Origin: a bacterium
Lineage (GTDB): Bacteria; Hydrothermota; Tepidihabitantia; Tepidihabitantales; Tepidihabitantaceae
Assembly (NCBI GenBank): GCA_035505375.1
Contig: DATJQV010000081.1
Span: forward strand, 151,423-215,422
Reading direction: 5' to 3'
Length of the DNA stretch: 64,000 nt
The position numbers and the translations under genes were made by a program. Below, piece after piece: positions 25,416 to 64,000 of the stretch (position 1 is its first letter; each line of letters opens with the position of its first letter). The notes beneath the pieces were generated by a model that did no database searches, had not been told where the DNA came from, and saw only the letters and a list, made by a program, of their open reading frames with translations.

Positions 25416-26834
25416 CTAGCGCGTCAGGACCACCTTTCGGACAGCTTGCGCTTGAGCTTCTCGCACGAAGTACACGCCGGGGCTGAGGCGGCTCACGTCA
25501 TTCGCGCCCGCCATCAGGCCCATCACCTTCCGCCCGCTCACGTCCAGCAGGCTTGCGGCTTGTGGCTTGCAGCTTGCGGCTTCCGGAAGGAACAGCGCTC
25601 CGCGAACGACCGTCGTGGCCGGCTTGCGGCTTGAGGCTTGTGGCTTGAGGCTCTCTTCTACCCCTGAGGCGCACAGATAGCTGCCCCAGATCTGCTGGTC
25701 ACTGCTCTGCCATATGCACCAGTGTTCGGTAACACCGACTGTGGTCATGGTCGGGTTGGTCTTCCGCGCGGAGTCGATGCACACCGGAACGTCCTGGCTC
25801 GAGAACATTGTCCGCGAGTAGATATCAGAACCTCCGTTCCGGTTCGACACCCACGCCACCGCAGCCTGATTCCAGGACTCGGTCGTGTACTCGGCCGGAG
25901 TTCCGCAGGGCGTGAAGTTGCTGCCGGCTCCGCTTGAGTCGCACCACCGTCGTCCGACCGAGAACGTGTCCATCGCTGTGCCGTAGACAGCCGTGTCGCC
26001 GTCGCGCGTCGATTCCCATGTAATCCATGGTCCCAAAGCGACCGGCGTCGGGCCGTAGCTTATCACATCGGGATTGCGGTCCAGCGCCGCCGAGTGCGCG
26101 ACCTCCTGCGGCGTCAGCCAGGACCCACTTACGTACTCGCTGTAGAAGATGTCGCCGTGTGTCTCCCAGACGAGCAGCGGGCAACCATAGTAGAGCCCGT
26201 GGTAGCCGCGGCCGAGCCGCGCGTGGCGAATCGTGTCGACCTGGACCACCGCAGCCCGCTGCGTCGTCCACGAATCACCGCCGTTGAACGAATAGTCGAT
26301 GTGCCAGCCGTCCGTATCCTGACAGGTCCAAGTCACCCAGGCCGTGTCGTACGGGCTGCCGTGTCTGATGGCCATCACCTGCGGCCACGTCGAATCGACG
26401 CCGGCAGTTTTGCCGGAACCGACCAGAACCCGTGAACTCCACGCCTGTCCGGCCGTGTCGAATTGCGCGTAGATATCAGCCGTACCGGCGGGGTGCTCCC
26501 AGACGCAGCAGAAAACAGGCCTGCCCGAAGACGCGTCATTAACGCAGGCGACGGCAGGGTTGACTGCAGCCAGGTTTCCGGAGATTAGTGTAGCAGGCCC
26601 CCACCCGTTGCCGTCAGTGAATGAACAGAGCTGACCGAACACTTCCCAGCGGACGCCACTGGCGAAGGACTGCCAGACCATGCACGTCGTGTCACCGAAC
26701 ACCCATTCCTTGCAGGCCGACGGCTTGATGCCGCCGATGCTGTCGCCCAAGAGGAACGGCCCGGTCCAGCCCTGCGCTGCCGCGTGGGGTGGGACTAAAG
26801 CGCAGAGAATCAAAACTATGATGCAGAACCTCAA
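25416..26834 (-). CDS. BNR/Asp-box repeat secreted protein with a C-terminal T9SS/FlgD-Ig-like sorting domain
   Basis: Signal peptide, Trp-rich repeats with S-x-D-x-G-x-T-W boxes (SFNGGDSWT) and a CTD ending ANDVSRLSPGVYFVREAQ...VVLTR. Confidence 0.65.
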   Translation of the reverse strand: MRFCIIVLILCALVPPHAAAQGWTGPFLLGDSIGGIKPSACKEWVFGDTTCMVWQSFASGVRWEVFGQLCSFTDGNGWGPATLISGNLAAVNPAVACVNDASSGRPVFCCVWEHPAGTADIYAQFDTAGQAWSSRVLVGSGKTAGVDSTWPQVMAIRHGSPYDTAWVTWTCQDTDGWHIDYSFNGGDSWTTQRAAVVQVDTIRHARLGRGYHGLYYGCPLLVWETHGDIFYSEYVSGSWLTPQEVAHSAALDRNPDVISYGPTPVALGPWITWESTRDGDTAVYGTAMDTFSVGRRWCDSSGAGSNFTPCGTPAEYTTESWNQAAVAWVSNRNGGSDIYSRTMFSSQDVPVCIDSARKTNPTMTTVGVTEHWCIWQSSDQQIWGSYLCASGVEESLKPQASSRKPATTVVRGALFLPEAASCKPQAASLLDVSGRKVMGLMAGANDVSRLSPGVYFVREAQAQAVRKVVLTR

Positions 26835-26843
26835 GACTCCTCC

Positions 26844-28148
26844 TTACTTTACGACGACAATCCTCCTAACGTCTTCTTGCTCACTACTCATCTCTCCCCG
26901 CTCCCTCACGAAATACACGCCGGGCGCAAGTCGCGACACATCATTCGCGCCGGAGTGCAACTCCGCGACCTTGCGCCCCGCCGCATCCAGGAGGACAGCG
27001 CGGAAAATGGGGACTGTACCGCGCCGAGTCGGACGCAGCCGCTCCGAGGGACTGTCCCCGTTTTCAGCTCGCGGCACAAACAGCACGTTCCTGACGACTG
27101 AGGGCGTTCGCGGCAAGCTGCGGACTCCCAGTTCCCGCGGCGCATCGCTCAATCCCAAAATGCCCATACCGTGAGCTATCCAAATGGCTCCGTGGTCGGA
27201 GTAAGCAATCACGGGTTCATTAAACGTGTCAGTTGTGATATCGCACCTGCCCGGACTTACCGAATCTCGGACGACCGACGTCTCTCCCCCCAGCATTGCG
27301 AACTTGATGCGGCCTGCCCGAGCCCACACGCACTGGACGCCGGCGGGGTTGTTCATGCAGGCCGCGCCGATGGAAGTGACACTGTCCAGCCGCACCCCAT
27401 CGCAGACAAGTTTATCATTCACAGGGTCCATCGCCGACCAGAATGTGTGAATGTAGTCGGAGCCGTCGGCCGCCAACGCGGCAAGGACGCCGCCACCGCC
27501 ATGGATCCCGCCTGCCTCTGTATCTGACGTCCAAACCCCACTGTCTCGCGTGTAGAGACTGACATTGTAAAAGTCAAAGAAACCACCCATGACCCCGTCG
27601 TCACTCTCCATGAACGCGCAATTGCCGTTCCAGCACCAGGTCGGACGGGTGAACGTAATCCACCAGTCCGAGTAGTTGGAGTCGGGAGGGATGACCAAGC
27701 TGGTGTCCCAACCCGAGTCAGTTCTCTGACCGAGGCACACGTTGCCAAGGCTATCCTTGAACATAAGCGATGGCCGACCGGCAAGGTCATAGCTGAAAGC
27801 CACGCCACTCATGGGCATGGGTAGTTGCTCAGATGACCAGACGGAGTCTCTGCGTTCGGCGAGTCGTCCCGATCCCACTACGCCAATCACGTCTCCAGGG
27901 CCGATGTCGAATGAGAACGGGGGTCGAACAAACGCAGTGTCTAAGTCTTCGTACTCCCACACTGTATCCTTGTGGGCAAGCCTGATGGCGGAGTCACGGG
28001 TGAGGTACGCGAGCCAGATCGTCCCGTCACTCGTCTTGTCAATGGCCACGTACGACCCAATGCTCCCGCTATCGACCTGCTCGAATTCCCAGTAGCCGGC
28101 GAGACAGACAGATGCGGTCACGGCAACGACGACGACCAGCGCTCTCAT
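26844..28148 (-). CDS. Secreted T9SS-CTD protein, paralog 1 of 3 in tandem
   Basis: N-terminal signal MRALVVVVAVTASVCLAGYWEFEQVDSGSIGSYVAIDKTSDGTIWLAY. The C-terminal tail is GANDVSRLAPGVYFVRE. Confidence 0.6.
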   Translation of the reverse strand: MRALVVVVAVTASVCLAGYWEFEQVDSGSIGSYVAIDKTSDGTIWLAYLTRDSAIRLAHKDTVWEYEDLDTAFVRPPFSFDIGPGDVIGVVGSGRLAERRDSVWSSEQLPMPMSGVAFSYDLAGRPSLMFKDSLGNVCLGQRTDSGWDTSLVIPPDSNYSDWWITFTRPTWCWNGNCAFMESDDGVMGGFFDFYNVSLYTRDSGVWTSDTEAGGIHGGGGVLAALAADGSDYIHTFWSAMDPVNDKLVCDGVRLDSVTSIGAACMNNPAGVQCVWARAGRIKFAMLGGETSVVRDSVSPGRCDITTDTFNEPVIAYSDHGAIWIAHGMGILGLSDAPRELGVRSLPRTPSVVRNVLFVPRAENGDSPSERLRPTRRGTVPIFRAVLLDAAGRKVAELHSGANDVSRLAPGVYFVRERGEMSSEQEDVRRIVVVK

Positions 28149-28157
28149 TGCATCTCC

Positions 28158-29441
28158 TTACCTGACCACCACGACCCTCCTGACTCCCGCGCGCTCGTGG
28201 CCTACTCCTTCATCTCCCACAAAGTACACGCCCGGCGCAAGTCGCGACACATCGTTTGCGCCTATATGCAGCTCCGCCACTCTGCGCCCCGCCACATCCA
28301 GCAGGGCTGCGGCTTGGAGCTTGTGGTCTGAGGCCTGCGGCAGGAACAGCACGTTCCTGACAATTGAAGGAGCTCGTGCCATACTGCGGACTATCGACTC
28401 CCGCGGCTCATCGGTCAATCCAACGATGCCCACGCCGTGTGCGACCCAGATGGAGCCGTCGCTTCGGCAGAAGGCTATGACCGGCTCAGCCAACTTGTCA
28501 GTCGTGATGTCGCACCAGACGACCCGATCCGCGCCTCCGACGACTTGTGTCGGCTCCCCGAGCAGGACGAACTTGAGGAGGCTGTCACGGGCCCACCATG
28601 CACACTGCACGCGACCGGAGTCGTCCAGGCAGGCCGCGCCGATGCTGGTGCAGGCGTCCAAGACAACGCCGTCGCAGACCAATTCGTCCGCCACGTAGTT
28701 GTCGGCAGCCGACCAGAACGTGTGAATGCTGTCGGAACTGTCAACCAACGCGGCAAGCCCGATTCCTTCGCCGTCGAGCCCGCCCGTTCCGCCGAAGTCT
28801 GTCCAGACGCCGCTATCTCTTCGCTTGAAAGAGACTTCGTAACCGTCTTGCAGGCCCATGCTCCACCAGTCGGCCACAATGAGTGCGCAGTTGCCATTCC
28901 GGCGCCAAGCCGGAGCGGTAATAGTAGCCCACGTCGAGTTTTGTGGGACATAAAAGACATTCGTGTCCCAGGATGGGCCTGTCTTCAGGCCGACGCAGCC
29001 GCGCCCCAAGCTGTCCTTGAAAGTGAGCGACGGCCGGCCTGCCGGGTCATAGCTCATGGACAGACCGTACATGACCATTGGCAGTCGCTCGGACGCCCAG
29101 ACGGAATCTCTGCGTTGGGCGAGCCGACCCAGTCCGACCACGCCGATGGCGCCGTCCGTGCTCACGTCGAAGGAGAACGGGAGGTTGTCACGAAGGAAAT
29201 TCGAAGGGAATATGGGACGAACCAAGGCGGTATCCAGGTCTTGGTACTCCCACACTGAATCCCGGTGGGCGAGCCTGATCGCGGAGTCACGGGTAATGTA
29301 CGCGAGCCAGATGGTCCCGTCGCTCGTCTTGTCAATCGCGACGTACGACCCAATGCTACCGCTGTCTACCTGTTCGAATTCCCAGTAGCCGGCGAGACAG
29401 ACAGATGCGGTCATGGCAACGACGACAACCAACGCTTTCAT
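28158..29441 (-). CDS. Secreted T9SS-CTD protein, paralog 2 of 3
   Basis: Over 60% identical to paralog 1 in the N-terminal 120 aa (MKALVVVVAMTASVCLAGYWEFEQVDSGSIGSYVAIDKTSDGTIWLAYITRDSAIRLAH). Confidence 0.6.
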   Translation of the reverse strand: MKALVVVVAMTASVCLAGYWEFEQVDSGSIGSYVAIDKTSDGTIWLAYITRDSAIRLAHRDSVWEYQDLDTALVRPIFPSNFLRDNLPFSFDVSTDGAIGVVGLGRLAQRRDSVWASERLPMVMYGLSMSYDPAGRPSLTFKDSLGRGCVGLKTGPSWDTNVFYVPQNSTWATITAPAWRRNGNCALIVADWWSMGLQDGYEVSFKRRDSGVWTDFGGTGGLDGEGIGLAALVDSSDSIHTFWSAADNYVADELVCDGVVLDACTSIGAACLDDSGRVQCAWWARDSLLKFVLLGEPTQVVGGADRVVWCDITTDKLAEPVIAFCRSDGSIWVAHGVGIVGLTDEPRESIVRSMARAPSIVRNVLFLPQASDHKLQAAALLDVAGRRVAELHIGANDVSRLAPGVYFVGDEGVGHERAGVRRVVVVR

Positions 29442-29450
29442 TGCATCTCC

Positions 29451-30725
29451 TTACCTGACCACCACGACCCTCCTGACTCCCGCGCGCTCGTGGCCTACTC
29501 CTCCATCTCCCACAAAGTACACGCCCGGCGCAAATCGCGACACATCGTTTGCGCCTATATGCAGCTCCGCCACTCTGCGCCCCGCCGCATCCAGCAGGCT
29601 TGCGGCTTGTGGCTTGCGGCCTGAGGACTGCCGCAGCAACAGGACGTTCCTGACGACTGAGGGAATTCTCGACAGGCTGCTGACTGCCGACTGCTGCGGC
29701 GCATCGCTCAGTGCGGCAACGCCCACCCCGTGGGCGACGTGAATGGAACCGTCGCTCAAGCGGTATGCGATCACGGGCTGTGAAAGTGAATCGGTCGTTA
29801 TGTCACAGCAGGTGATACTGACGCCGCTCAAGACCACCTGTATCGGCTCATGGAGCAAGTCGAACTCCAGCGCATTGTTGCCTACCCATACGCACTGCAC
29901 GCGGCCGGAGCCGTCCAGGCAGGCCGCGCCGATGGAAGTGTAACCGTCCAGTCGCACCCCATCGCAGACAAGTTCATCAGTCCCGTAAGGGTCGCCTGCC
30001 GACCAGAGTGTGTGAATGCTGTCGGAGCTGTCAGCCAACGCCGCAAACCCGCAACCGCCGCCGTCGAGTCCGCCCGCTCCGCCGAAGTCTGTCCAGACAC
30101 CGTTGTCTCGTCGTTTGAGAGAGACGTCGTAACCGTCAATCAAGCCACCCTCGGTCCACACGTCGGCCTCAATGAGTGCGCAGTTGCCGTTCCGGCGCCA
30201 ACCCGGGCGGGTAAGGGAATACGTGTTGCTATCCGTCATGTAGACAACATTCGTATCCCAGGAGGAATCAGTCTTCAGGCCAAGACACCCGCGCCAGAGG
30301 CTGTCCTTGAACGTAAGCGATGGCCGACCGGCCGGGTCATAGCTTAAGGCCGCATCTCTCATGGGCATCGGTAGTTGCTCAGATGACCAGACGGAGTCTC
30401 TGCGTTCGGCGAGTCGTCCCGATCCCACTACGCCCATCACATCTCCAGGCCCGATGTCAAACGAGAAAGGCGGCCGGACGAGCGACGTATCCAAGTCTTC
30501 GTACCACCACCCCGCGTCCGCGTGCGCAAGCCGGATGACGGAATCGCGGTTCTCGTAGGCGAGCCAGATGGTCCCGTCACTCGTCTTGTCAATGGTCACG
30601 TACGACCCAATGCTCCCATTGTCCACCAGTGCGAAGGTCCAATAGCCTGCACGGCAGATGGTCGCGACCGTGGCAATGGCGACCACGGATATTTGAAGAC
30701 GCCGGCAGAAGTCAAACGTTGCCAT
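29451..30725 (-). CDS. Secreted T9SS-CTD protein, paralog 3 of 3
   Basis: The start is taken at MATFDFCRRLQISVVAIATVATICRAGYWTFALVDNGSIGSYVTIDKTSDGTIWLAY. The ORF is open upstream to 30989, probably without meaning. Confidence 0.55.
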   Translation of the reverse strand: MATFDFCRRLQISVVAIATVATICRAGYWTFALVDNGSIGSYVTIDKTSDGTIWLAYENRDSVIRLAHADAGWWYEDLDTSLVRPPFSFDIGPGDVMGVVGSGRLAERRDSVWSSEQLPMPMRDAALSYDPAGRPSLTFKDSLWRGCLGLKTDSSWDTNVVYMTDSNTYSLTRPGWRRNGNCALIEADVWTEGGLIDGYDVSLKRRDNGVWTDFGGAGGLDGGGCGFAALADSSDSIHTLWSAGDPYGTDELVCDGVRLDGYTSIGAACLDGSGRVQCVWVGNNALEFDLLHEPIQVVLSGVSITCCDITTDSLSQPVIAYRLSDGSIHVAHGVGVAALSDAPQQSAVSSLSRIPSVVRNVLLLRQSSGRKPQAASLLDAAGRRVAELHIGANDVSRFAPGVYFVGDGGVGHERAGVRRVVVVR

Positions 30726-30726
30726 C

Positions 30727-31275
30727 CTATTCAAGGTCTTCCTCCTTTGCGGAACGGCGGAGCATCTCAAGCTCTGCGATTTCGGCCTTGAGGAGTTCGT
30801 AGACGTTGTAGACAATCGGGCAGTACGGCAGGTTCCAGAGCGCCATGACGGAATGGGTGGCGAAATCCGGCCTGTACAGGAAGGGAAAGTCGACGCAGGA
30901 CTCGGGCCGGCTGTGGTAGTAGCGGCAGAGTTTGTCCTGAAGAAACGGGCAGGGCTTCTGAGTGGGCACGAACTTCCCCTTCTCCTCAACCTCCTTCAGG
31001 TACGTGTGCGCGAGTACGTCCGGCGTGACACCCACGGCCTGCGCCAGCCGCGCAATATCTCTCCGGCTTAGCGCCGGATACAACTCTCGGCAGCAGTTGG
31101 CACACGTGCGGCAGTCGATTTTCGAGGAGACTATGCCCGACAGACGGTGGACGATGCCGTCGATCTCTTCCGGAGTGATAGAGCAACGTCTGATGTGGAC
31201 ACGAAACGCCTGGTTCTCGGCTTCCTTCTCTTTGGCCAGTTCCAGTATGCGGGCAAGGTCGGTCTCGAGTTTCAT
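30727..31275 (-). CDS. YkgJ-family (UPF0153) Cys-cluster protein
   Basis: CxxCxxCC motif (CRTCANCC) plus additional conserved Cys residues. 182 aa. Confidence 0.65.
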   Translation of the reverse strand: MKLETDLARILELAKEKEAENQAFRVHIRRCSITPEEIDGIVHRLSGIVSSKIDCRTCANCCRELYPALSRRDIARLAQAVGVTPDVLAHTYLKEVEEKGKFVPTQKPCPFLQDKLCRYYHSRPESCVDFPFLYRPDFATHSVMALWNLPYCPIVYNVYELLKAEIAELEMLRRSAKEEDLE

Positions 31276-36041: not shown

Positions 36042-36129
36042 TCATTTTCGATTTCCGCTTGTCGATTTCCGATTGTCCGCCCAGACTTCTGAATTCTGCC
36101 TTCTGGTTTCTGAATTCTGAATCGTCCTG

Positions 36130-36915: not shown

Positions 36916-37021
36916 AGGCGGAGGGATGAAGGATGAATTCCGGTTCCGGCCTCCCGGTTCAGCCTTTCCGGTTTCATCGCTTCCTCTTTGTGTCTTGGTG
37001 TCTTTGTGGTGAATCCCGAAA

Positions 37022-37654
37022 CTACTGACCCGCCCGCGAAAACTCCTCGATAGCCGCATCCGACAGTGGGTGATTGCCGAGACTGAGCAGTATGTCCAGC
37101 GGTAGCGTCAGATGATTCGCCCCGGCCACTACGGCCTGCGTGGCCTCATCGGCCGACTTGATACTCGCGGCCAGTATCTCAACACATCTGTCGGACGTCC
37201 TGAGCACCGCCGCCATCTCGGCCACCAGCTTGTTCCCGTCACCAAGTAACCGCGTAGCCCGGTTCACATAGGGAATCACGTAGCGAGCGCCCGCTTCGCA
37301 GGCGACGAGAGTCTGAGCTCCGCTGTAGACAGCGGTAGCGGCACACGGAGTGTCCCGTGAGAGCTTCGCCATCAAAGCCAGGTTCTCGGTTGTGGCAGGT
37401 ATCTTCAGCACGACCTTCTCGCGGCAGATGTCGAAGAACTCCCTGCCCTCGCGCTCCCGCTCTTCCGGCGTCTTTGCCGTCACCTGATAGAACACCGGCC
37501 CAGGCGCAAGTGCGCAGATCTGCCGAATGATGTCTTTCGGCTGCCCCTTCACCTTCGCCATGATGGTCGGGTTCGTGGTCACGCCCGAAAGAAACCCGAG
37601 CTCGACCGCCCGCCTTACTTCCTCAATCTTCGCGCTATCCAGGAATAGTCCCAC
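37022..37654 (-). CDS. fsa: Transaldolase / fructose-6-phosphate aldolase family (short TalC/Fsa type)
   Basis: 210 aa. GVTTNP and a VLKIPAT Schiff-base lysine region. Confidence 0.8.
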   Translation of the reverse strand: MGLFLDSAKIEEVRRAVELGFLSGVTTNPTIMAKVKGQPKDIIRQICALAPGPVFYQVTAKTPEEREREGREFFDICREKVVLKIPATTENLALMAKLSRDTPCAATAVYSGAQTLVACEAGARYVIPYVNRATRLLGDGNKLVAEMAAVLRTSDRCVEILAASIKSADEATQAVVAGANHLTLPLDILLSLGNHPLSDAAIEEFSRAGQ

Positions 37655-37657
37655 TGC

Positions 37658-38815
37658 TCACTCCTTTTCGGTTCGGGTCAAGAAACGTTCGACATGATCC
37701 CGCCTTGGCATGGATGGTTCAGCGCCCATGATGGTGCAGGCGAGAGCGCCGCAGGCGTTGGCGAATCGCACAGCTTCATCAAGGCTGGCACCCTCGGCAA
37801 TTCTCACCGCCAATCCGGCGCGGAACGCATCCCCAGCGCCGGTCGTGTCCACGACGTTCACCTTGTGCGCCGGGAACCGGGTCAGCGCGGCGCGGTCAAC
37901 TGCCAGCGCGCCTTCTTCGCCGAGTGAGATAACCACGCCCTGCCGCGTCTCGGGCAGAAGCACAGCCGCCGCTTCCTCCGGCGTCATCCTGCCGGTCAGC
38001 ATGTGGGCTTCGATTTCGTTGGGCACAAGGTAGTCAAAGTAGAAGTCGTCCAGTGGTCTCGTGGTCGAGTGTTCCGGCATCTCCGTTCTGGAACTCTGGC
38101 TTCTGCCCCCTTCTGTCTGACTTGGTGCCTTTGCGTCTTGGTGGTGAAATCCGTCTCCGCAATTCTGGTTTCTAGTTTCTGGTTTCTGGTCTCTGGTTTC
38201 TCCGTCCGCCTTTGTGTCTTCGTGTCTTTGTGGTGAATCCCCGCAATTCTGGACCCTGGACTCTGGATTCTGGATTCTGGATTCTTCCTGTCCTCCATGC
38301 CTCACCGGCGCAGGGTCGAGCAGCACCAGTGTTCCGTGCTTCCGGGCAATCTCGGCGGCACGCCGCGACGCTGCCAACGGTATCTCGAACTGGAGCATCA
38401 GGATGTCGGCGAGGGCAATCTGCTCCTCTACCGCGAGCACATCCTCGGGCGTCACGCGCATGTTGGCCCGCGGCGCGGCGATGATGCTGTTCTGCCCGTT
38501 CTCGTCCACGACCGGCGTGGCAATCGCGGTTCCCGCCTCAGGGTCGCGGGTCACGCCACTCAGGCAGATTCCTTCCTGCTCCAGCTTGGCGACGAACATG
38601 TCACCGAACGGGTCGCGGCCGACCCGACCGACGATGCACACGTCAGCGCCCAGTCGCCTCGCTCCGACCGCCTGGTTGAACCCCTTGCCGCCGAGGAACA
38701 TACCGAAGTCTTCGGCCAGCATCGTCTCGCCCGGTCCGGGCCGGTGCTTCACTCTAAACATGAGGTCGGTCACGAAGCTCCCGACAACCAGAACGCGAGG
38801 CCGGTCGCCTTTCAT
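37658..38815 (-). CDS. PfkB/ribokinase-family sugar kinase carrying an in-frame insertion of about 75 aa
   Basis: N-terminal GGKGFNQA and C-terminal DTTGAGDAF motifs. Between LDPAPV and DDFYFDYLVPNE, where E. coli RbsK has about 8 residues, lies about 75 aa of low-complexity sequence. It is encoded by heptamer and 35-nt repeats at 38090-38300. Confidence 0.7.
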   Translation of the reverse strand: MKGDRPRVLVVGSFVTDLMFRVKHRPGPGETMLAEDFGMFLGGKGFNQAVGARRLGADVCIVGRVGRDPFGDMFVAKLEQEGICLSGVTRDPEAGTAIATPVVDENGQNSIIAAPRANMRVTPEDVLAVEEQIALADILMLQFEIPLAASRRAAEIARKHGTLVLLDPAPVRHGGQEESRIQNPESRVQNCGDSPQRHEDTKADGETRDQKPETRNQNCGDGFHHQDAKAPSQTEGGRSQSSRTEMPEHSTTRPLDDFYFDYLVPNEIEAHMLTGRMTPEEAAAVLLPETRQGVVISLGEEGALAVDRAALTRFPAHKVNVVDTTGAGDAFRAGLAVRIAEGASLDEAVRFANACGALACTIMGAEPSMPRRDHVERFLTRTEKE

Positions 38816-38830
38816 CTCGTCGCCAGCAGG
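38785..38830. repeat. Direct repeat A (ribokinase start region), partner of 40699-40745
   Basis: caaccagaacgcgaggccggtcgcctttcatctcgtcgcc versus caagcagaacgcgcggccggtcgcctttcatgctgtcgag. Confidence 0.7.
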
Positions 38831-38831
38831 A

Positions 38832-40604
38832 CTATAGCGGCAGCTTCTCCCACTGGAATCTCCGTCGAGCAACGTTCATGCACCTGTCAAACATGGCATT
38901 AGTCCGCAAGAAACTATAGCTCTCTTGGGCGAGCCTCGTCTGATCGTCATTGTTGTTCACAGCTTCAGCGACGATGAATCTCACGCGGGTTGAAGCGACT
39001 TGCTTGAGCCGATCGAGGTAGTTCCCCCGAACGACTAGGTCGTTGCCGTAGCTGTTAGTTAGGTCGTCAAGGTCGTCCGCGTTGAGCACGCCCTGCACCA
39101 CGAGCGCCCAAATGAGATTGCGTGCTCGACCCATGTAGTCGTACTTGTTCTCGCCTCGTTTCACGATTTCCTGCACGACGCTATTCAGTTTCAACTGCAC
39201 CTTGTATAGCAGAATGATCTTCCTGCTGTCCGCCTCTAGGTAGCACTTGCGGAAACAGTCCGAATACTGTTTCTCCTCGCCAAAGACATCCCTGAGCCGA
39301 GACATCCGGTCGGTCTGCCCCTGTATGGCAAGAAACGTCTGCGCCAGCTTCTTGATATCAACGGCCCTGCCAACAGTGACGTCGTACCCCTGGTCCTCGA
39401 GCTCGGAATCCGACAGACTCTCGAATGACTCCTCCTGTCTTTCGTAGAAGAGACGGAGGTCGTCCCTGAGCTTCTCTTGTATGGCGAGCTGAATGTCGTC
39501 GTTTGCCCTGAGATGCCACGGCTCAACCGGGTTCTGCTGGTTGTTTCTGACAGTCACGTTCACCACAAAGTCACGCGAGGCAGCCGATATGAACTTCGCG
39601 ATGACGTGTACGTCCTCAAGGCGGCTGCGGTTACTAACAAGCGCCGCATTGTCTTTGTTGTCATCAACGAACTTCGCCAAGCTCGTGATAGTCTGCGCAC
39701 CATTCAGAAGGCGGGGCTCCACAATGGTCGCCCGACGATCGGCGACCTCGAGAGCCTCGACCGCCAGGGCGACACCGTTGTGGTTGAACGCAAAGACGCT
39801 GGGCTCGTCCCTCTCGGCAAGGACAATGTCCCGAAACGCTGCTCTAAGGGCACGATTTGGGCGCGATTCCGGTGACAGACCCGCTCGAATGTTCCTCTCG
39901 AAGAACCTAAACCCCATCTCACGATACATGCGATAGAGATCCATCAGTCTGACTGTGCCCACATGAAGGCGCTCTCCCGCGGGGCCGACGCATTCTCCAT
40001 GCCAGGGCATGTCGACATCGTACCTGTGGAGTTTTTGGACAGGCGGGGTCCACTTCTTCTTGGTCTGGTTCGAAGCGAACTGGGTGAAGAATTCCACCTC
40101 TCTCCCAAAGAATCCGTTCACGACGTGCCGTTTGTCTTCAAGTTCCTCACGTAAGGCGGTAAGCGTAGGGCTGTTCTCAGCAGCCCTCGCGTCCCCGTTG
40201 AAGACGAACTGAACGATGACGCGATCCACAATAGCCTTGTTCTCGATAATGGCCGACTTGAGTTGTCCGACAAGAGGATTCTGTCTCTCGTCCTGAAGCG
40301 GGTCACCGAATATGCGTTGAATGCCTGCTGAGATCAGACGCCTGAACGATTCTCTGAACAGAGTGTGATTCTCCGACCACTTGAATTGGAACAGATAGAG
40401 ATTCCGTCTTGTCATGTCGAGATGAAACGCGTCGAAGCCGTAGTCATCGCCACCGAATGCCACCTGACAGGCTACCTCCTCGACCGATTGGTAACCATAC
40501 TCCCTCATCAGGTAGAGAACTGCGAAGTAGTCCTCTTTCACGCCACCATAGTGAACTGAGTGTTCTTTGAAGGTTTGGTCGAGTTCTCTCTGCGTGACAA
40601 TCAT
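38832..40604 (-). CDS. Putative abortive-infection / phage-defence protein (AIPR-like), on a lower-GC island
   Basis: 590 aa. The N-terminal GGDDYGFDAF block resembles the G-DDGGIDA motif of AIPR (PF10592) proteins. Hand-counted GC in 60-nt stretches is about 47-55% inside the gene versus 62-68% in its neighbours. The family call rests on memory of that motif and is not verified. Confidence 0.4.
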   Translation of the reverse strand: MIVTQRELDQTFKEHSVHYGGVKEDYFAVLYLMREYGYQSVEEVACQVAFGGDDYGFDAFHLDMTRRNLYLFQFKWSENHTLFRESFRRLISAGIQRIFGDPLQDERQNPLVGQLKSAIIENKAIVDRVIVQFVFNGDARAAENSPTLTALREELEDKRHVVNGFFGREVEFFTQFASNQTKKKWTPPVQKLHRYDVDMPWHGECVGPAGERLHVGTVRLMDLYRMYREMGFRFFERNIRAGLSPESRPNRALRAAFRDIVLAERDEPSVFAFNHNGVALAVEALEVADRRATIVEPRLLNGAQTITSLAKFVDDNKDNAALVSNRSRLEDVHVIAKFISAASRDFVVNVTVRNNQQNPVEPWHLRANDDIQLAIQEKLRDDLRLFYERQEESFESLSDSELEDQGYDVTVGRAVDIKKLAQTFLAIQGQTDRMSRLRDVFGEEKQYSDCFRKCYLEADSRKIILLYKVQLKLNSVVQEIVKRGENKYDYMGRARNLIWALVVQGVLNADDLDDLTNSYGNDLVVRGNYLDRLKQVASTRVRFIVAEAVNNNDDQTRLAQESYSFLRTNAMFDRCMNVARRRFQWEKLPL

Positions 40605-40659
40605 GCGTCCTCCACCTGCGGCCAGTTTCTAGTCTTGTGGATCCATCGTTGCGGCGACC

Positions 40660-40738
40660 TAGGCCGGCGCGGGATCCGCGACAGGACGTCTGTTGTAAAT
40701 CGCCTGACAAGCAGAACGCGCGGCCGGTCGCCTTTCAT
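40660..40738 (-). pseudogene. Duplicated remnant of the ribokinase 5' end
   Basis: The reverse complement reads ATGAAAGGCGACCGGCCGCGCGTTCTGCTTGTC..., giving MKGDRPRVLLVRRFTTDVLSRIPRRP*. The intact gene reads MKGDRPRVLVVGSFVTDLMFRV. The remnant stops after 26 codons. Confidence 0.6.
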
Positions 40739-40784
40739 GCTGTCGAGAGAATACCCGGAATCAGACGACTATCAACCGGCTGAG

Positions 40785-41153
40785 CTACTTGTCCTTATCT
40801 CTGAACAACGCCGACATGATCATGGTGGCGATGCTGACGATGAGCGCGCCAAAGAACGCGGCCCAGAACCCGCGCACGTAGAAGCCGACGTGAAACCAGT
40901 GGACGGCGATGGACGACGACAACCACAGCGTCAGGGCATTGATGACGAGCGTGAACAAACCAAGCGTCAGAATGATGAGCCCGCAGGATAGCAACTTGAG
41001 GACCGGCCTGACGAGCGCGTTGACCAGACCCAGAATGACGGCCATCACCGCATAGATCCACCACGCGTTGGCCGCGACCTTGATGCCCGGCACGATCCAG
41101 GCGGCAAGGAACAAGGCAAGCGCCGCAATCAGCCATCGGATGAGAAGCTTCAC
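40785..41153 (-). CDS. DUF360 / phage-holin-family-4-like small membrane protein
   Basis: 122 aa with 3-4 TM helices and a YvlD/DUF360-like pattern. Confidence 0.55.
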   Translation of the reverse strand: MKLLIRWLIAALALFLAAWIVPGIKVAANAWWIYAVMAVILGLVNALVRPVLKLLSCGLIILTLGLFTLVINALTLWLSSSIAVHWFHVGFYVRGFWAAFFGALIVSIATMIMSALFRDKDK

Positions 41154-41616
41154 GGTTCCTCCCTTGGTAAGCGCCGGCCAGCGCGGTGGCTCAAGTCAGG
41201 CTGCCAGCCGCGCACGCTCGGCGCAAGTCATCTTGGATTGCCACAAGAATACCGACAATCCGCCGGCCATCAAGACGCAGCCACCAGCCTGAATCCGACA
41301 TAGAGACTCACCACAAAGGCACAAAGACACAAAGAGGGTGAGGACGGAAATCGGCTCTGTCTGCTTGGTGTTCTTGGTGTCTTGGTGGTTCAATATCGGG
41401 TTTGGGGCACAAGCTTATGAGAGGCTCGTCTTCGGGCGCAGGGCTAGGCCCCTGATTCCCTCGGACGCACGGAGCATTTGGAAGCCGGTTTTGAGGCAGC
41501 CCGAACCATCCCAGTTTCTTATAAGTCCCCAAGGATTCCGACCCGGAAATCTCCTAACTTATCTCTTTTCAATTCACTATTCACTCTTTCCGTTTCTCCC
41601 CTATCCCATCCCCCCG

Positions 41617-62241: not shown

Positions 62242-64000
62242 ATGAGGACATCGAGCGTACTGCTGGCCGTCTGCTGCTGCCTGTCGGCGGCCAGCGGACA
62301 GACCTTGGAGACCACCATCTATCTGCCCGACTCGCTCGGCGGGCTGTCTCAACCGCAGTGTCTGGCGTATGACTCGGCCAGCAACACTGTCTACGTCGCC
62401 GGCACGTACGGCAACTACGTGCTGGCCATTGATGGCGCGGCCAACCAGAAGCTGGCCAGAATCCCGATCGGGTCGCTCGGAAGCGCCCTCTGCTACAACC
62501 CGACCAAAAACAAGGTCTACTGCGCAAATCTCTACAGCGACAAGGTAACCGTCGTGGATGGCGTAACCAACGGAGTTATCGCCACCGTGACTGTAGGTAG
62601 CAATCCTTTGGCTCTCTGTTACAACCCGACGAACAGCAAGGTCTATTGCGCGAACGAACACAGTGGTAGTGTGACCGTGATTGATGGCGCGACTGACAGC
62701 GCCATCGCTACCGTGGCTACAGGTAGCTATCCTCGTGCCTTCTGTTACAACCCGACCAATAACAGGGTCTACTGTGCGAACTACAGCAGCGCCAACGTGA
62801 CCGTGATTGACGGTGCCGCCGACAGCGTCATCGCCACCGTGACAGCAGGTAGCCACCCTTATGCCCTCTGCTACAACGCGACCAGCAACAAAGTCTACTG
62901 TGCGAATGAGGGCAGCGACAACGTTACGGTGATAGACGGCGCGACTGACAGCGTCATCGCCACCGTGACTGCGGGTGTCCACCCGTGGGCCCTGAGCTAC
63001 AACCCGACGAACAATAGGGTCTACTGCGCGAACGAGGCAGACACGACCGTGACCGTGATTGACGGCGCGAATGACCGTGTCATCGCCACCGTGGCTGCAG
63101 TCCTCCACCCCGATGCGCTTTGCTACAATCGCGCTAATGACAAGGTCTTCTGCGCGGACGCGGGCGGCGATGTGACGGTAATTGACGGCGCCACCGACAG
63201 CGTCATCGCCACAGTGGCCGCAGGAAGCTACCCCTGTGCCATTTGCTACAACTTGGCCAACAACAAGGTCTGCTGTGCCAATCAAAACAGCGGCAACGTG
63301 ACCGTGATAGACGGCGAGAGCAACGAGGTCATCGCCACCGTGGGCACAGGCACGTGGCCGTACGCTCTCTGCTACAACCTGACCAAAAACAAGGTCTACT
63401 GTGCGAACAATAGCAGTTGCAGCGTGACCGTGATAGACGGCGGGAGTAACGAGGTCATCGCCACGGTCGCCACAGGTGAAATGCCCGAGGCCCTCTGCTA
63501 CAGCATGACCAACGACAAGGTCTACTGCGCGAATTGGATGGTCGGAGACGTGACCGTGATAGATGGTGTGACCGACGGCGTCATCGCTACAGTAGCTACC
63601 GGTGGGAGTCCTAGCGCTCTCTGCCACGACTCGGCCAATGATAAAGTCTACTGCGCGAGCTTTGACGGCGGCGTGACCGTGATTGACGGCGCAACTGACA
63701 GTGTCATCGCCACCGTTGCCACTGGCAGCGGCCCGAGTGCCCTCTGCTACAACACGGCCCGCAACAAGGTCTACTGTGCGAACTCCTACAGCGACAACGT
63801 GACCGTGATAGACGGTGTCGCCGACAGCGTCATCGCCACCGTGACTACGGGCAGTGAACCCTATGCCCTCTGCTACAACCCGACGAACGATAGGGTGTAC
63901 TGCGCGAATCGGGGTAGCGACAGCGTGACCGTCATGGACGGCGCAACTGACAGTGTCATCGCCACCGTTGCCACTGGCAGCGGCCCGAGTGCCCTCTGCT
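62242..64000 (+). CDS. YVTN-family beta-propeller repeat protein, N-terminal part; the gene runs off the window end
   Basis: AAGGAG lies 5 nt upstream of the ATG. Signal peptide MRTSSVLLAVCCCLSAASGQT. At least 13 tandem repeats of about 42 aa (126 nt) with the consensus KVYCAN..S..VTVIDGATDSVIATV.TGS.P.ALCYNPTNN. It is absent from the ORF track because it has no stop inside the window. Confidence 0.7.
   Translation, partial: MRTSSVLLAVCCCLSAASGQTLETTIYLPDSLGGLSQPQCLAYDSASNTVYVAGTYGNYVLAIDGAANQKLARIPIGSLGSALCYNPTKNKVYCANLYSDKVTVVDGVTNGVIATVTVGSNPLALCYNPTNSKVYCANEHSGSVTVIDGATDSAIATVATGSYPRAFCYNPTNNRVYCANYSSANVTVIDGAADSVIATVTAGSHPYALCYNATSNKVYCANEGSDNVTVIDGATDSVIATVTAGVHPWALSYNPTNNRVYCANEADTTVTVIDGANDRVIATVAAVLHPDALCYNRANDKVFCADAGGDVTVIDGATDSVIATVAAGSYPCAICYNLANNKVCCANQNSGNVTVIDGESNEVIATVGTGTWPYALCYNLTKNKVYCANNSSCSVTVIDGGSNEVIATVATGEMPEALCYSMTNDKVYCANWMVGDVTVIDGVTDGVIATVATGGSPSALCHDSANDKVYCASFDGGVTVIDGATDSVIATVATGSGPSALCYNTARNKVYCANSYSDNVTVIDGVADSVIATVTTGSEPYALCYNPTNDRVYCANRGSDSVTVMDGATDSVIATVATGSGPSALC

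Follow-up and report, generated by a model that had tools for sequence, protein, structure and literature searches.

An AIPR/AbiU-family gene inserted into the start of a ribokinase gene in a WOR-3 bacterium, between two hybrid copies of that start

This report concerns a single gene of a known defence family that lies within the 5' end of a ribokinase gene on a 64,000-nt stretch of contig DATJQV010000081.1 (assembly GCA_035505375.1), a stretch referred to throughout as the window. Between 37.0 and 41.2 kb of the window, all genes of interest are on the minus strand and follow one another in the order DUF360/Phage_holin_4_2 gene, short intergenic stretch, open reading frame (ORF) of 45 codons, ORF of 590 aa, spacer, ribokinase gene and transaldolase-family gene. 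The start of the ribokinase gene is present twice, once at the working gene (copy A) and once upstream of the 590-aa ORF (copy B). The features are as follows, in the order of transcription.

40785..41153, minus strand: gene for a DUF360/Phage_holin_4_2 membrane protein, the conserved upstream flank (Pfam PF04020, 104.6 bits)
40748..40775, minus strand: native ribokinase promoter-like site, TTGATA-16-TATTCT, ending 9 nt 5' of the copy B ATG
40704..40738, minus strand: copy B, proximal part, the original ribokinase ATG and first 35 nt; left junction, attL-like
40655..40703, minus strand: copy B, distal part, degenerate ribokinase-like sequence, nt 36-84 (codons 12-28)
40601..40738, minus strand: leader ORF of 45 codons, from the old ribokinase ATG, with a TGA that overlaps the AIPR ATG (ATGA)
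40608..40616, minus strand: Shine-Dalgarno-like GGTGGAGGA, read from the sequence, 3 nt 5' of the AIPR ATG
38832..40604, minus strand: AIPR/AbiU-family gene, 590 aa, ATG start, 1,773-nt ORF
38816..38831, minus strand: spacer of 16 nt from the AIPR stop to the rebuilt ribokinase ATG, unrelated to the native upstream sequence
38781..38815, minus strand: copy A, proximal part, the working ribokinase start; right junction, attR-like
37658..38815, minus strand: intact ribokinase (PfkB) gene, 385 aa (Pfam PfkB, 205.9 bits; NCBIfam TIGR02152, 276 bits)
37022..37654, minus strand: transaldolase/fructose-6-phosphate aldolase gene, the downstream operon partner (Pfam TAL_FSA, 120.6 bits)

The two copies of the ribokinase start were returned by the repeat finder as a pair at 38739-38822 and 40662-40745 (84 nt, 71% identity, spacing 1,923 nt), with the copy A ATG at 38815 and the copy B ATG at 40738, one spacing further on. 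Counted from the ATG, 32 of the first 35 nt are identical, with mismatches at nt 18, 28 and 34, and 27 of the following 49 (nt 36-84) agree in the same fixed register. Identity between the copies falls abruptly from 91% to 55% at this step, and past nt 84 similarity has ended, with 19% matching over nt 85-100. The best ungapped match of one flank to the other scored 27 against a maximum of 11 among shuffled sequences; for the distal part alone, 27 of 49 compares with a mean of 13 for random 49-mers from the window, which never exceeded 25 in about 9,100 trials. The duplication is genuine and reaches further, in degraded form, than an earlier note on this DNA had described. That note's figure of about 40 identical positions in 45 comes down to 37 of 45 without gaps, the duplicated start itself being confirmed. 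As it had also reported, the copy B frame runs into divergent sequence and a stop, here placed after 45 codons, and the downstream copy leaves the ribokinase intact, at the head of a complete 385-aa gene. No second pair of duplicated gene starts was present in the window.

Relatives of the locus were found with the ribokinase protein and are labelled candidate division WOR-3. Both flanks are contained in 29 related loci, 27 of them empty at this site and two occupied; the empty ones comprise seven species-representative genomes, 19 metagenome contigs and the nearest relative, L136. At all 27 empty sites, 33-55 nt separate the DUF360 gene from the ribokinase downstream of it, and the copy B ATG, 46 nt past the DUF360 stop, stands where a ribokinase start would be expected. 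L136, which is 89% identical in DNA over the 5' half of ribokinase, aligns unbroken to window positions 41190-40706 and 38814-38304, with its bases 2798-2829 aligned twice as a 32-nt overlap across the insertion site. Empty sites in 27 relatives, together with the collinearity of L136 across the site, identify a true insertion with a period of 1,923 nt. On this comparison of the ribokinase-DUF360 interval, which the earlier note had proposed as a check, the insertion of the AIPR gene into the ribokinase 5' end is proven by the relatives. No closer relative was available for dating, none exceeding 89% DNA identity (93% amino-acid identity in the N-terminal half of ribokinase). An empty-site allele of the same strain was not found either, all contigs carrying its exact DUF360 or ribokinase protein being occupied.

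The two occupied relatives held no recognisable defence gene. In L069 the site is taken by a second DUF360 paralogue. L059 carries a different insertion of 1.44 kb (340-1775) between DUF360 and ribokinase, which replaces the conserved promoter region and encodes, on the opposite strand, a 407-aa signal-peptide protein with a weak TPR signal; no gene start is duplicated there. The suggestion that the site marks a defence-gene hotspot in this lineage was abandoned, as 27 of the 29 related loci are empty, the other two hold a secreted TPR-like protein or a DUF360 paralogue, and no varied defence cargo appears at the site among them.

The relatives also allow the native and incoming parts of each copy to be told apart. 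Over the 45 nt that precede copy B, identity with the region ahead of ribokinase is 73-96% in most relatives (22-36% in four relatives with a different upstream sequence), and the 45 nt upstream of copy A, made up of the AIPR 3' end and the spacer, are unrelated to them, at about 30% identity. Past nt 35, copy A is 76-90% identical to most relatives (61-90% over all 28, the lowest value belonging to the most distant, L053), and the distal arm of copy B is 47-59% identical to every relative, being about equally far from all and closer to no one of them that might hint at a donor. Within nt 1-35 the two copies have lineage-specific states in common, for example GAC at codon 4, and where they differ at nt 18 and 28, copy A agrees with L136. 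Judged by these comparisons, copy B stops being native at some point in nt 17-35 and continues from there as a diverged ribokinase-like arm, and copy A is non-native up to the region of the ATG and native thereafter. Both junctions accordingly fall within one segment no longer than 35 nt, a pattern characteristic of single-site (Campbell-type) recombination and not of two crossovers in the flanks.

In order to judge whether the distal arm of copy B could have decayed in place, identity at four-fold degenerate sites between the window and L136 was taken as a guide (70% in ribokinase and 66% in DUF360). A perfect duplicate decaying neutrally since the split from L136 would be expected to retain at least 70-75% identity with copy A, and the observed 27 of 49 has a probability of 0.019 at the lower of these values and 0.002 at the higher. 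This shortfall against neutral decay, taken with the abrupt step from 91% to 55%, favours an arm that came in with the incoming DNA and was already diverged when it arrived.

The earlier note had assigned the inserted gene to the AIPR family as a candidate, and the profile searches bear this out. Pfam PF10592 (AIPR) matched the 590-aa protein with 83.5 bits (cut-off 25), residues 235-481 aligning to profile positions 1-249 of 308, and the PADLOC AbiU model (PDLC02357) gave a partial match of 64 bits (E = 3.7e-18), with residues 213-485 aligned to positions 219-456 of 537. Three domains can be distinguished, an N-terminal FokI-like PD-(D/E)xK domain, the central AIPR domain and a helical C-terminal domain. 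The first of these was identified in an AlphaFold model. Pfam returned no matches for the isolated N- and C-terminal segments. The model predicts a restriction-endonuclease-like domain with conserved catalytic residues, and D54, G56, D58 and Q73-F74-K75 are invariant among homologues, a D...QxK variant of the nuclease signature. The GGDDYGFDAF block, from which the AIPR assignment had first been drawn, belongs to this N-terminal nuclease-like domain and lies outside residues 235-481.

Homologues are numerous (1,268 recovered, the best 55% identical). Among the matches listed, nearly all are 583-625 aa long, and their sources include Sorangium, Planctomycetota, Nitrososphaerota and many metagenomic contigs. 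One homologue neighbourhood lies between BREX PglZ/BrxL and a reverse transcriptase; others hold PDDEXK_4, Nmad3, or HerA/Ymh with an integrase, and some homologues stand alone.

AbiU1 is said, from work by Dai and colleagues in 2001, to be about 589 aa long, and it is in size, in an AIPR domain above the Pfam gathering threshold and in the PADLOC AbiU match that the protein studied here resembles AbiU1 and AbiUi. Further points of likeness to AbiUi are the FokI-like N-terminal nuclease fold (PMC13064643) and the occurrence of the present homologues in defence-island neighbourhoods. AbiUi alone confers modest resistance and delays phage transcription as a single component that resembles a FokI-type nuclease (PMC13064643), AbiU-1 has been grouped in the PD-(D/E)XK superfamily (PMC13099982), and AbiU1/AIPR proteins have been linked to restriction-modification systems and to DndB (PMC3506569). 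The lactococcal AbiU proteins are nevertheless very distant, the PADLOC model being matched by the central 270 residues only; the motif here is D...QxK, with an invariant Q73, and not D...ExK, and no AbiU2-like partner gene is present. MzaE of the MZA anti-phage system (NCBIfam NF041935) shares the AIPR core and has a profile of similar extent (593 positions), but the protein scored 17 bits against a cut-off of 1,050 and no Mza partner genes occur at this locus. Taken with the predicted structure, these matches make the protein a new member of a known but mechanistically unsolved defence family, with a nuclease fold that the model supports. Its most likely role is that of an abortive-infection or restriction-like effector made of a single polypeptide, in which the N-terminal domain would cut nucleic acid under the control of the AIPR and helical domains. 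What points to a role in phage resistance is the association with defence neighbourhoods.

The inserted gene is poorer in GC than its surroundings (54.4%, compared with 61.3% for the window, 62.3% for ribokinase and 59.1% for DUF360), and the 2-kb windows centred on it, at 55.4-56.1%, are the lowest in the whole 64 kb. This contrast had been noted before, but from hand counts of 47-55% inside and 62-68% outside that exaggerated it; within the ORF, 300-nt windows range from 50 to 60%. The deficit resides mainly at codon positions 1 and 2 (GC2 0.349), with GC3, at 0.685, at the low end among host genes, and synonymous codon usage is mid-range (z = -0.25 by a leave-one-out score over 40 window ORFs). 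The low GC of the gene stems from its amino-acid composition and not from a foreign codon dialect. As usage is typical of the host and the deficit sits at positions 1 and 2, GC is weak evidence for recent arrival and was set aside as proof of foreign origin. The profile of GC and codon usage that the earlier note had proposed as a check showed a GC trough and host-like synonymous usage.

The geometry of expression follows from the position of the insert. The TTGATA-16-TATTCT site is conserved and is the sole sigma-70-like hit in 38600-41300; if its -10 assignment is right, the mRNA would be nearly leaderless. Translation from the old ribokinase ATG would give MKGDRPRVLLV, then 34 unrelated residues, then a TGA that overlaps the AIPR ATG as ATGA. 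No convincing terminator was found in the 16 nt between the AIPR stop and the rebuilt ribokinase ATG, and the simplest reading is that of a single transcript covering leader, AIPR gene, ribokinase and transaldolase. The ATGA overlap is suggestive, and only that, of translational coupling between leader and AIPR gene. The leader (40652-40732, minus strand) could also form a long imperfect hairpin in which GGCGACCGGCCGCGCG pairs with CGCGCCGGCCTAGGTCGCC, joining the ribokinase-start core to the end of the diverged arm, and a GGCGACC...GGTCGCC stem is present in it. The fold of the whole leader was not significant against shuffled sequences (z = -1.27), and the pairing may reflect GC richness.

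No match to integrase or transposase families was obtained among the flanking genes and the 38 larger ORFs of the window, the AIPR ORF being the only gene of the insert, and no tRNA occurs within 18 kb (none nearer than 20.3 kb). The earlier remark that no integrase, transposase or tRNA adjoins the gene therefore stands, and a tRNA or structured-RNA target was dropped from consideration. A transposon, insertion sequence or MITE was likewise rejected: no inverted repeat joins the ends of the insert, no transposase was found, and the duplication is 32-84 nt long with graded similarity. Local inverted repeats of at least 14 nt were not found. The junction of a reconstructed circle folded no better than shuffled sequences (z = -0.59 and -0.25) and showed no attC-like fold, and an integron cassette was dismissed on this ground and because only 16 nt follow the stop codon. 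For a phage or plasmid vehicle, tblastn of the AIPR clade returned no match in INPHARED or PLSDB, a single hit, at 45% identity, came from the 2.9 million contigs of IMG/VR, and this candidate was also discarded. Finally, duplicated flanks are not a general property of the AIPR clade, as seven homologue loci examined have varied contexts and no direct repeats.

The reading we prefer, though we would put it at no better than an even chance, is that a small DNA carrying an imitation of the ribokinase start entered by Campbell-type recombination, with a recombinase that acted in trans or has since been lost. The cargo would have been about 1.9 kb, consisting of one AIPR/AbiU-family gene with about 100 nt before it and 16 nt after it, and a conservative, single-site event would have placed it within the first 17-35 nt of ribokinase coding sequence in a WOR-3 bacterium. 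The incoming DNA is envisaged to have borne an attachment sequence like the ribokinase start, made up of a near-identical core (ATGAAAGGCGACCGGCC...) and, after it, a ribokinase-like arm that had diverged; an element-borne sequence of this kind would place both junctions inside the same 35-nt segment. The upstream hybrid copy would then consist of the native promoter, the native ATG and the element-borne diverged arm, and the downstream one of the element-borne 5' spacer and core joined to native ribokinase, which would be left intact. As a result, the host promoter would now drive an operon in which the AIPR gene is the first long cistron, ahead of ribokinase and transaldolase. Translation could proceed from the old ribokinase ATG through the 45-codon leader to the ATGA overlap, the AIPR gene also having what looks like a strong Shine-Dalgarno sequence of its own. 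The cassette would now be fixed in the sampled population. Of all this, the insertion and its limits, the hybrid make-up of both copies, the arrangement of the operon, and the protein's family and fold are shown; how the DNA recombined, whether the genes are co-transcribed and coupled, and the nuclease and defence activity are inferred.

By analogy, the closest precedent is provided by islands that enter a gene at its 5' end and supply a replacement for that end. SXT/R391 elements in prfC target a gene 5' end in this manner; islands in dusA are about 10 kb in size and SXT/R391 about 100 kb. As in both, the insertion described here, which the empty sites of relatives reveal, interrupts a conserved housekeeping gene within its opening codons, a remnant 5' end and imperfect att-like direct repeats (32 of 35 nt) are present, and the host gene is rebuilt beside the insert. 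Both of those islands carry their own tyrosine integrase by the att site, whereas the present insert is a single 1.9-kb gene with no element-encoded integrase beside the att-like site, and its rebuilt host gene has received no new promoter and is placed behind the cargo. In dusA, the islands replace the gene 5' end and leave a remnant 5' end and imperfect direct repeats, with 21-bp semiconserved attL and attR (PMC4482086). Integron cassettes offer a more limited likeness, as a compact, apparently promoterless single-ORF unit that depends on an outside promoter and would form a small circle if excised, but no attC-like structure, intI or attI is present. Defence hotspots that lack an integrase occur between core genes in other bacteria, such as the core defence hotspots of Pseudomonas aeruginosa and those of E. 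coli. They resemble this locus in having defence cargo between conserved core genes and no mobility gene, and differ in holding cargos that vary from strain to strain, where here 27 of 29 related loci are empty and the cargo lies inside a coding sequence with a duplication.

Among the alternatives, a larger integrase-bearing island of the dusA or SXT/prfC style, from which an internal deletion left the AIPR gene and the att-like junctions, is unlikely but survives best. It would produce the same junction signature as the preferred explanation, dusA islands are known to leave such remnant 5' ends (PMC4482086), and one AIPR homologue (L137) adjoins a Phage_integrase gene. The extreme compactness of the insert, with a 1,773-nt ORF in a 1,923-nt period, 16 nt after it and about 100 nt before it, argues against this origin, since the deletion must have trimmed precisely to one intact gene on both sides; in addition, no pseudogene fragments are visible, every other listed ORF of the insert overlapping the AIPR ORF.

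We consider quite unlikely an old event in situ, in which illegitimate or microhomology-mediated entry made a second copy of 84 nt or more from the ribokinase start, the distal part then decayed, and the first 35 nt were kept alike by selection on the translation start or by gene conversion from copy A. The fully host-like codon usage of the AIPR gene would fit long residence, the start signals now used by the leader and the AIPR gene lie in the first 35 nt, and the age of the event is poorly bounded, the nearest sampled relatives being at least 11% diverged in DNA. Set against these points, the 55% identity of the distal part lies below neutral decay since the L136 split (P = 0.002-0.02), the step from 91% to 55% is abrupt, and an older insertion would need many precise losses to leave all 27 relatives empty.

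Integrase-free defence hotspots are thought to swap cargo by homologous recombination in conserved flanks, and allelic replacement of this sort could have imported a segment comprising DUF360, pseudo-start, AIPR gene and ribokinase from another WOR-3 lineage. Host-like codon usage would suit a related donor, and L136 is the best match in the 5' half of ribokinase (89%) and among the worst in the 3' part (78.6%); these shifting identity ranks, together with ribokinase alleles that fall into insert and no-insert classes, point to recombination at the locus. This origin is nonetheless improbable, as no relative has the AIPR gene or any defence cargo at the site, and as both crossovers would need to fall in the same 35 nt, which is a single-site signature and not that of a two-flank replacement.

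An assembly chimera or mis-join at a short repeat can be all but disregarded, for beyond the source being a metagenome-assembled genome nothing speaks for it, the occupied arrangement is 100% identical, at both junctions, in four independent assemblies (the 353.5-kb NCBI contig, an ENA MEGAHIT contig and two Logan contigs from different runs), which shows that it is not an assembly artefact, and the longest perfect run between the copies, 17 nt, is below assembly k-mers.

Several points weigh against integration through an element-borne start mimic as we have described it. It rests on a single instance, no recombinase was found in the insert, the flanks or the 38 larger window ORFs, no empty-site or circular form was seen among contigs of this strain, and the seven homologue loci without flanking direct repeats give no evidence of a recurrent cassette. 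The decay argument presumes both an insertion after the L136 split and neutral evolution of the arm, and with relatives at least 11% diverged and the age so poorly bounded, precise loss by recombination between the repeats could mask an older origin. In copy B, the distal similarity falls on the side that contributes nothing to rebuilding the gene, and an attP serving purely for 5' replacement would need none. With respect to expression, the promoter consensus is of the E. coli type and may not be that of WOR-3, and by our own estimate a 45-codon frame would be open and end in ATGA by chance in about 5-10% of cases. The ranking of the mechanisms is tentative, with one instance and no closer relatives to draw on.

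Few classes of gene pass between genomes as fast as defence genes do, and many chromosomal ones have no visible means of transport. Here, a single defence gene sits within a gene start between att-like hybrid repeats, no recombinase accompanies it, and both junctions are readable base by base. The strongest form of the proposal is that the 1,923-nt unit is a complete, recombinase-less mobile defence cassette mobilised in trans, with a start-mimicking attachment site, insertion in frame with the start signals of the host, a takeover of the host promoter and start codon by way of a coupled leader ORF, and a rebuilt start given back to the host gene. We hold this to be improbable; if true, it would describe a minimal gene cassette that hijacks a start codon and is mobilised in trans. 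Should further examples be found, they would establish a class of minimal cassette that relies on the promoter and start codon of a host gene, and the duplicated gene start flanking one ORF would then be a searchable signature. For now, this is one well-documented example, from an uncultured phylum, of island insertion in a style already known.

The wider surroundings of the locus contribute further observations. Apart from the DUF360/Phage_holin_4_2 and transaldolase genes, the neighbours include genes for a 255-aa protein without a family, a TrmB-like protein and PrsW. In relatives, the DUF360 gene is 84-94% identical and always has ribokinase directly downstream, and the transaldolase gene downstream of ribokinase is conserved. 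Upstream of DUF360, synteny breaks from window position 41154 to about 43970: a gene of about 1 kb lies directly upstream of DUF360 in all relatives and is absent from the whole 64-kb window, where its place is held by a copy of a dispersed repeat and by the genes for the 255-aa protein and the TrmB-like protein (280 aa), neither of which was found in the relatives' loci.

A second variable spot of the operon, not related to defence, lies between ribokinase and transaldolase. Many relatives have one or two extra genes there, encoding secreted proteins of 390-415 aa with a weak beta-propeller signal (L004 2457-3665, L006 8990-11541, L007 1179-2423, L009 6950-8182, L010 3135-4307 and L011 6580-7824); the window, L005 and L008 have none.

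The ribokinase gene itself contains an in-frame insert of about 85 aa (38036-38305, minus strand), made of two tandem copies of the dispersed repeat, whose unit consists of a TTCTGGT/ATTCTGG heptad array and a CTTTGTGTCTTCGTGTCTTTGTGGTGAATCCC core. Related copies lie at 36986-37017 and 41307-41334, and heptad arrays also at 36087, 45991 and 48062. At the same ribokinase codon, L008, L054 and L136 have no insert, and L004-6, L057, L060, L061, L065 and L073 have one of about 25 aa that holds a single ESRxQNxExRxQNC unit. The insert looks like a repeat element living in frame within a loop of the enzyme. Independent short-read contigs of the same strain end at dispersed repeats, L002 at 41335 and 37407 and L003 with its start at 36984, and such breaks fit multi-copy elements. 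The other end of L003 is at window position 40726, 12 nt into copy B, which could reflect low coverage or heterogeneity of the junction in the population.

Elsewhere in the window, four tandem paralogous genes of about 430-515 aa each (25419-30995, minus strand) share 62-91% identity over long stretches, with GGCTTGCGGCTTG-type repeats between them; the two that were tested, 25419-26843 and 26847-28157, have no Pfam family. At 62418-63971, at least nine copies of a 126-nt (42-aa) unit lie within a long ORF on the minus strand, which the end of the window cuts short.

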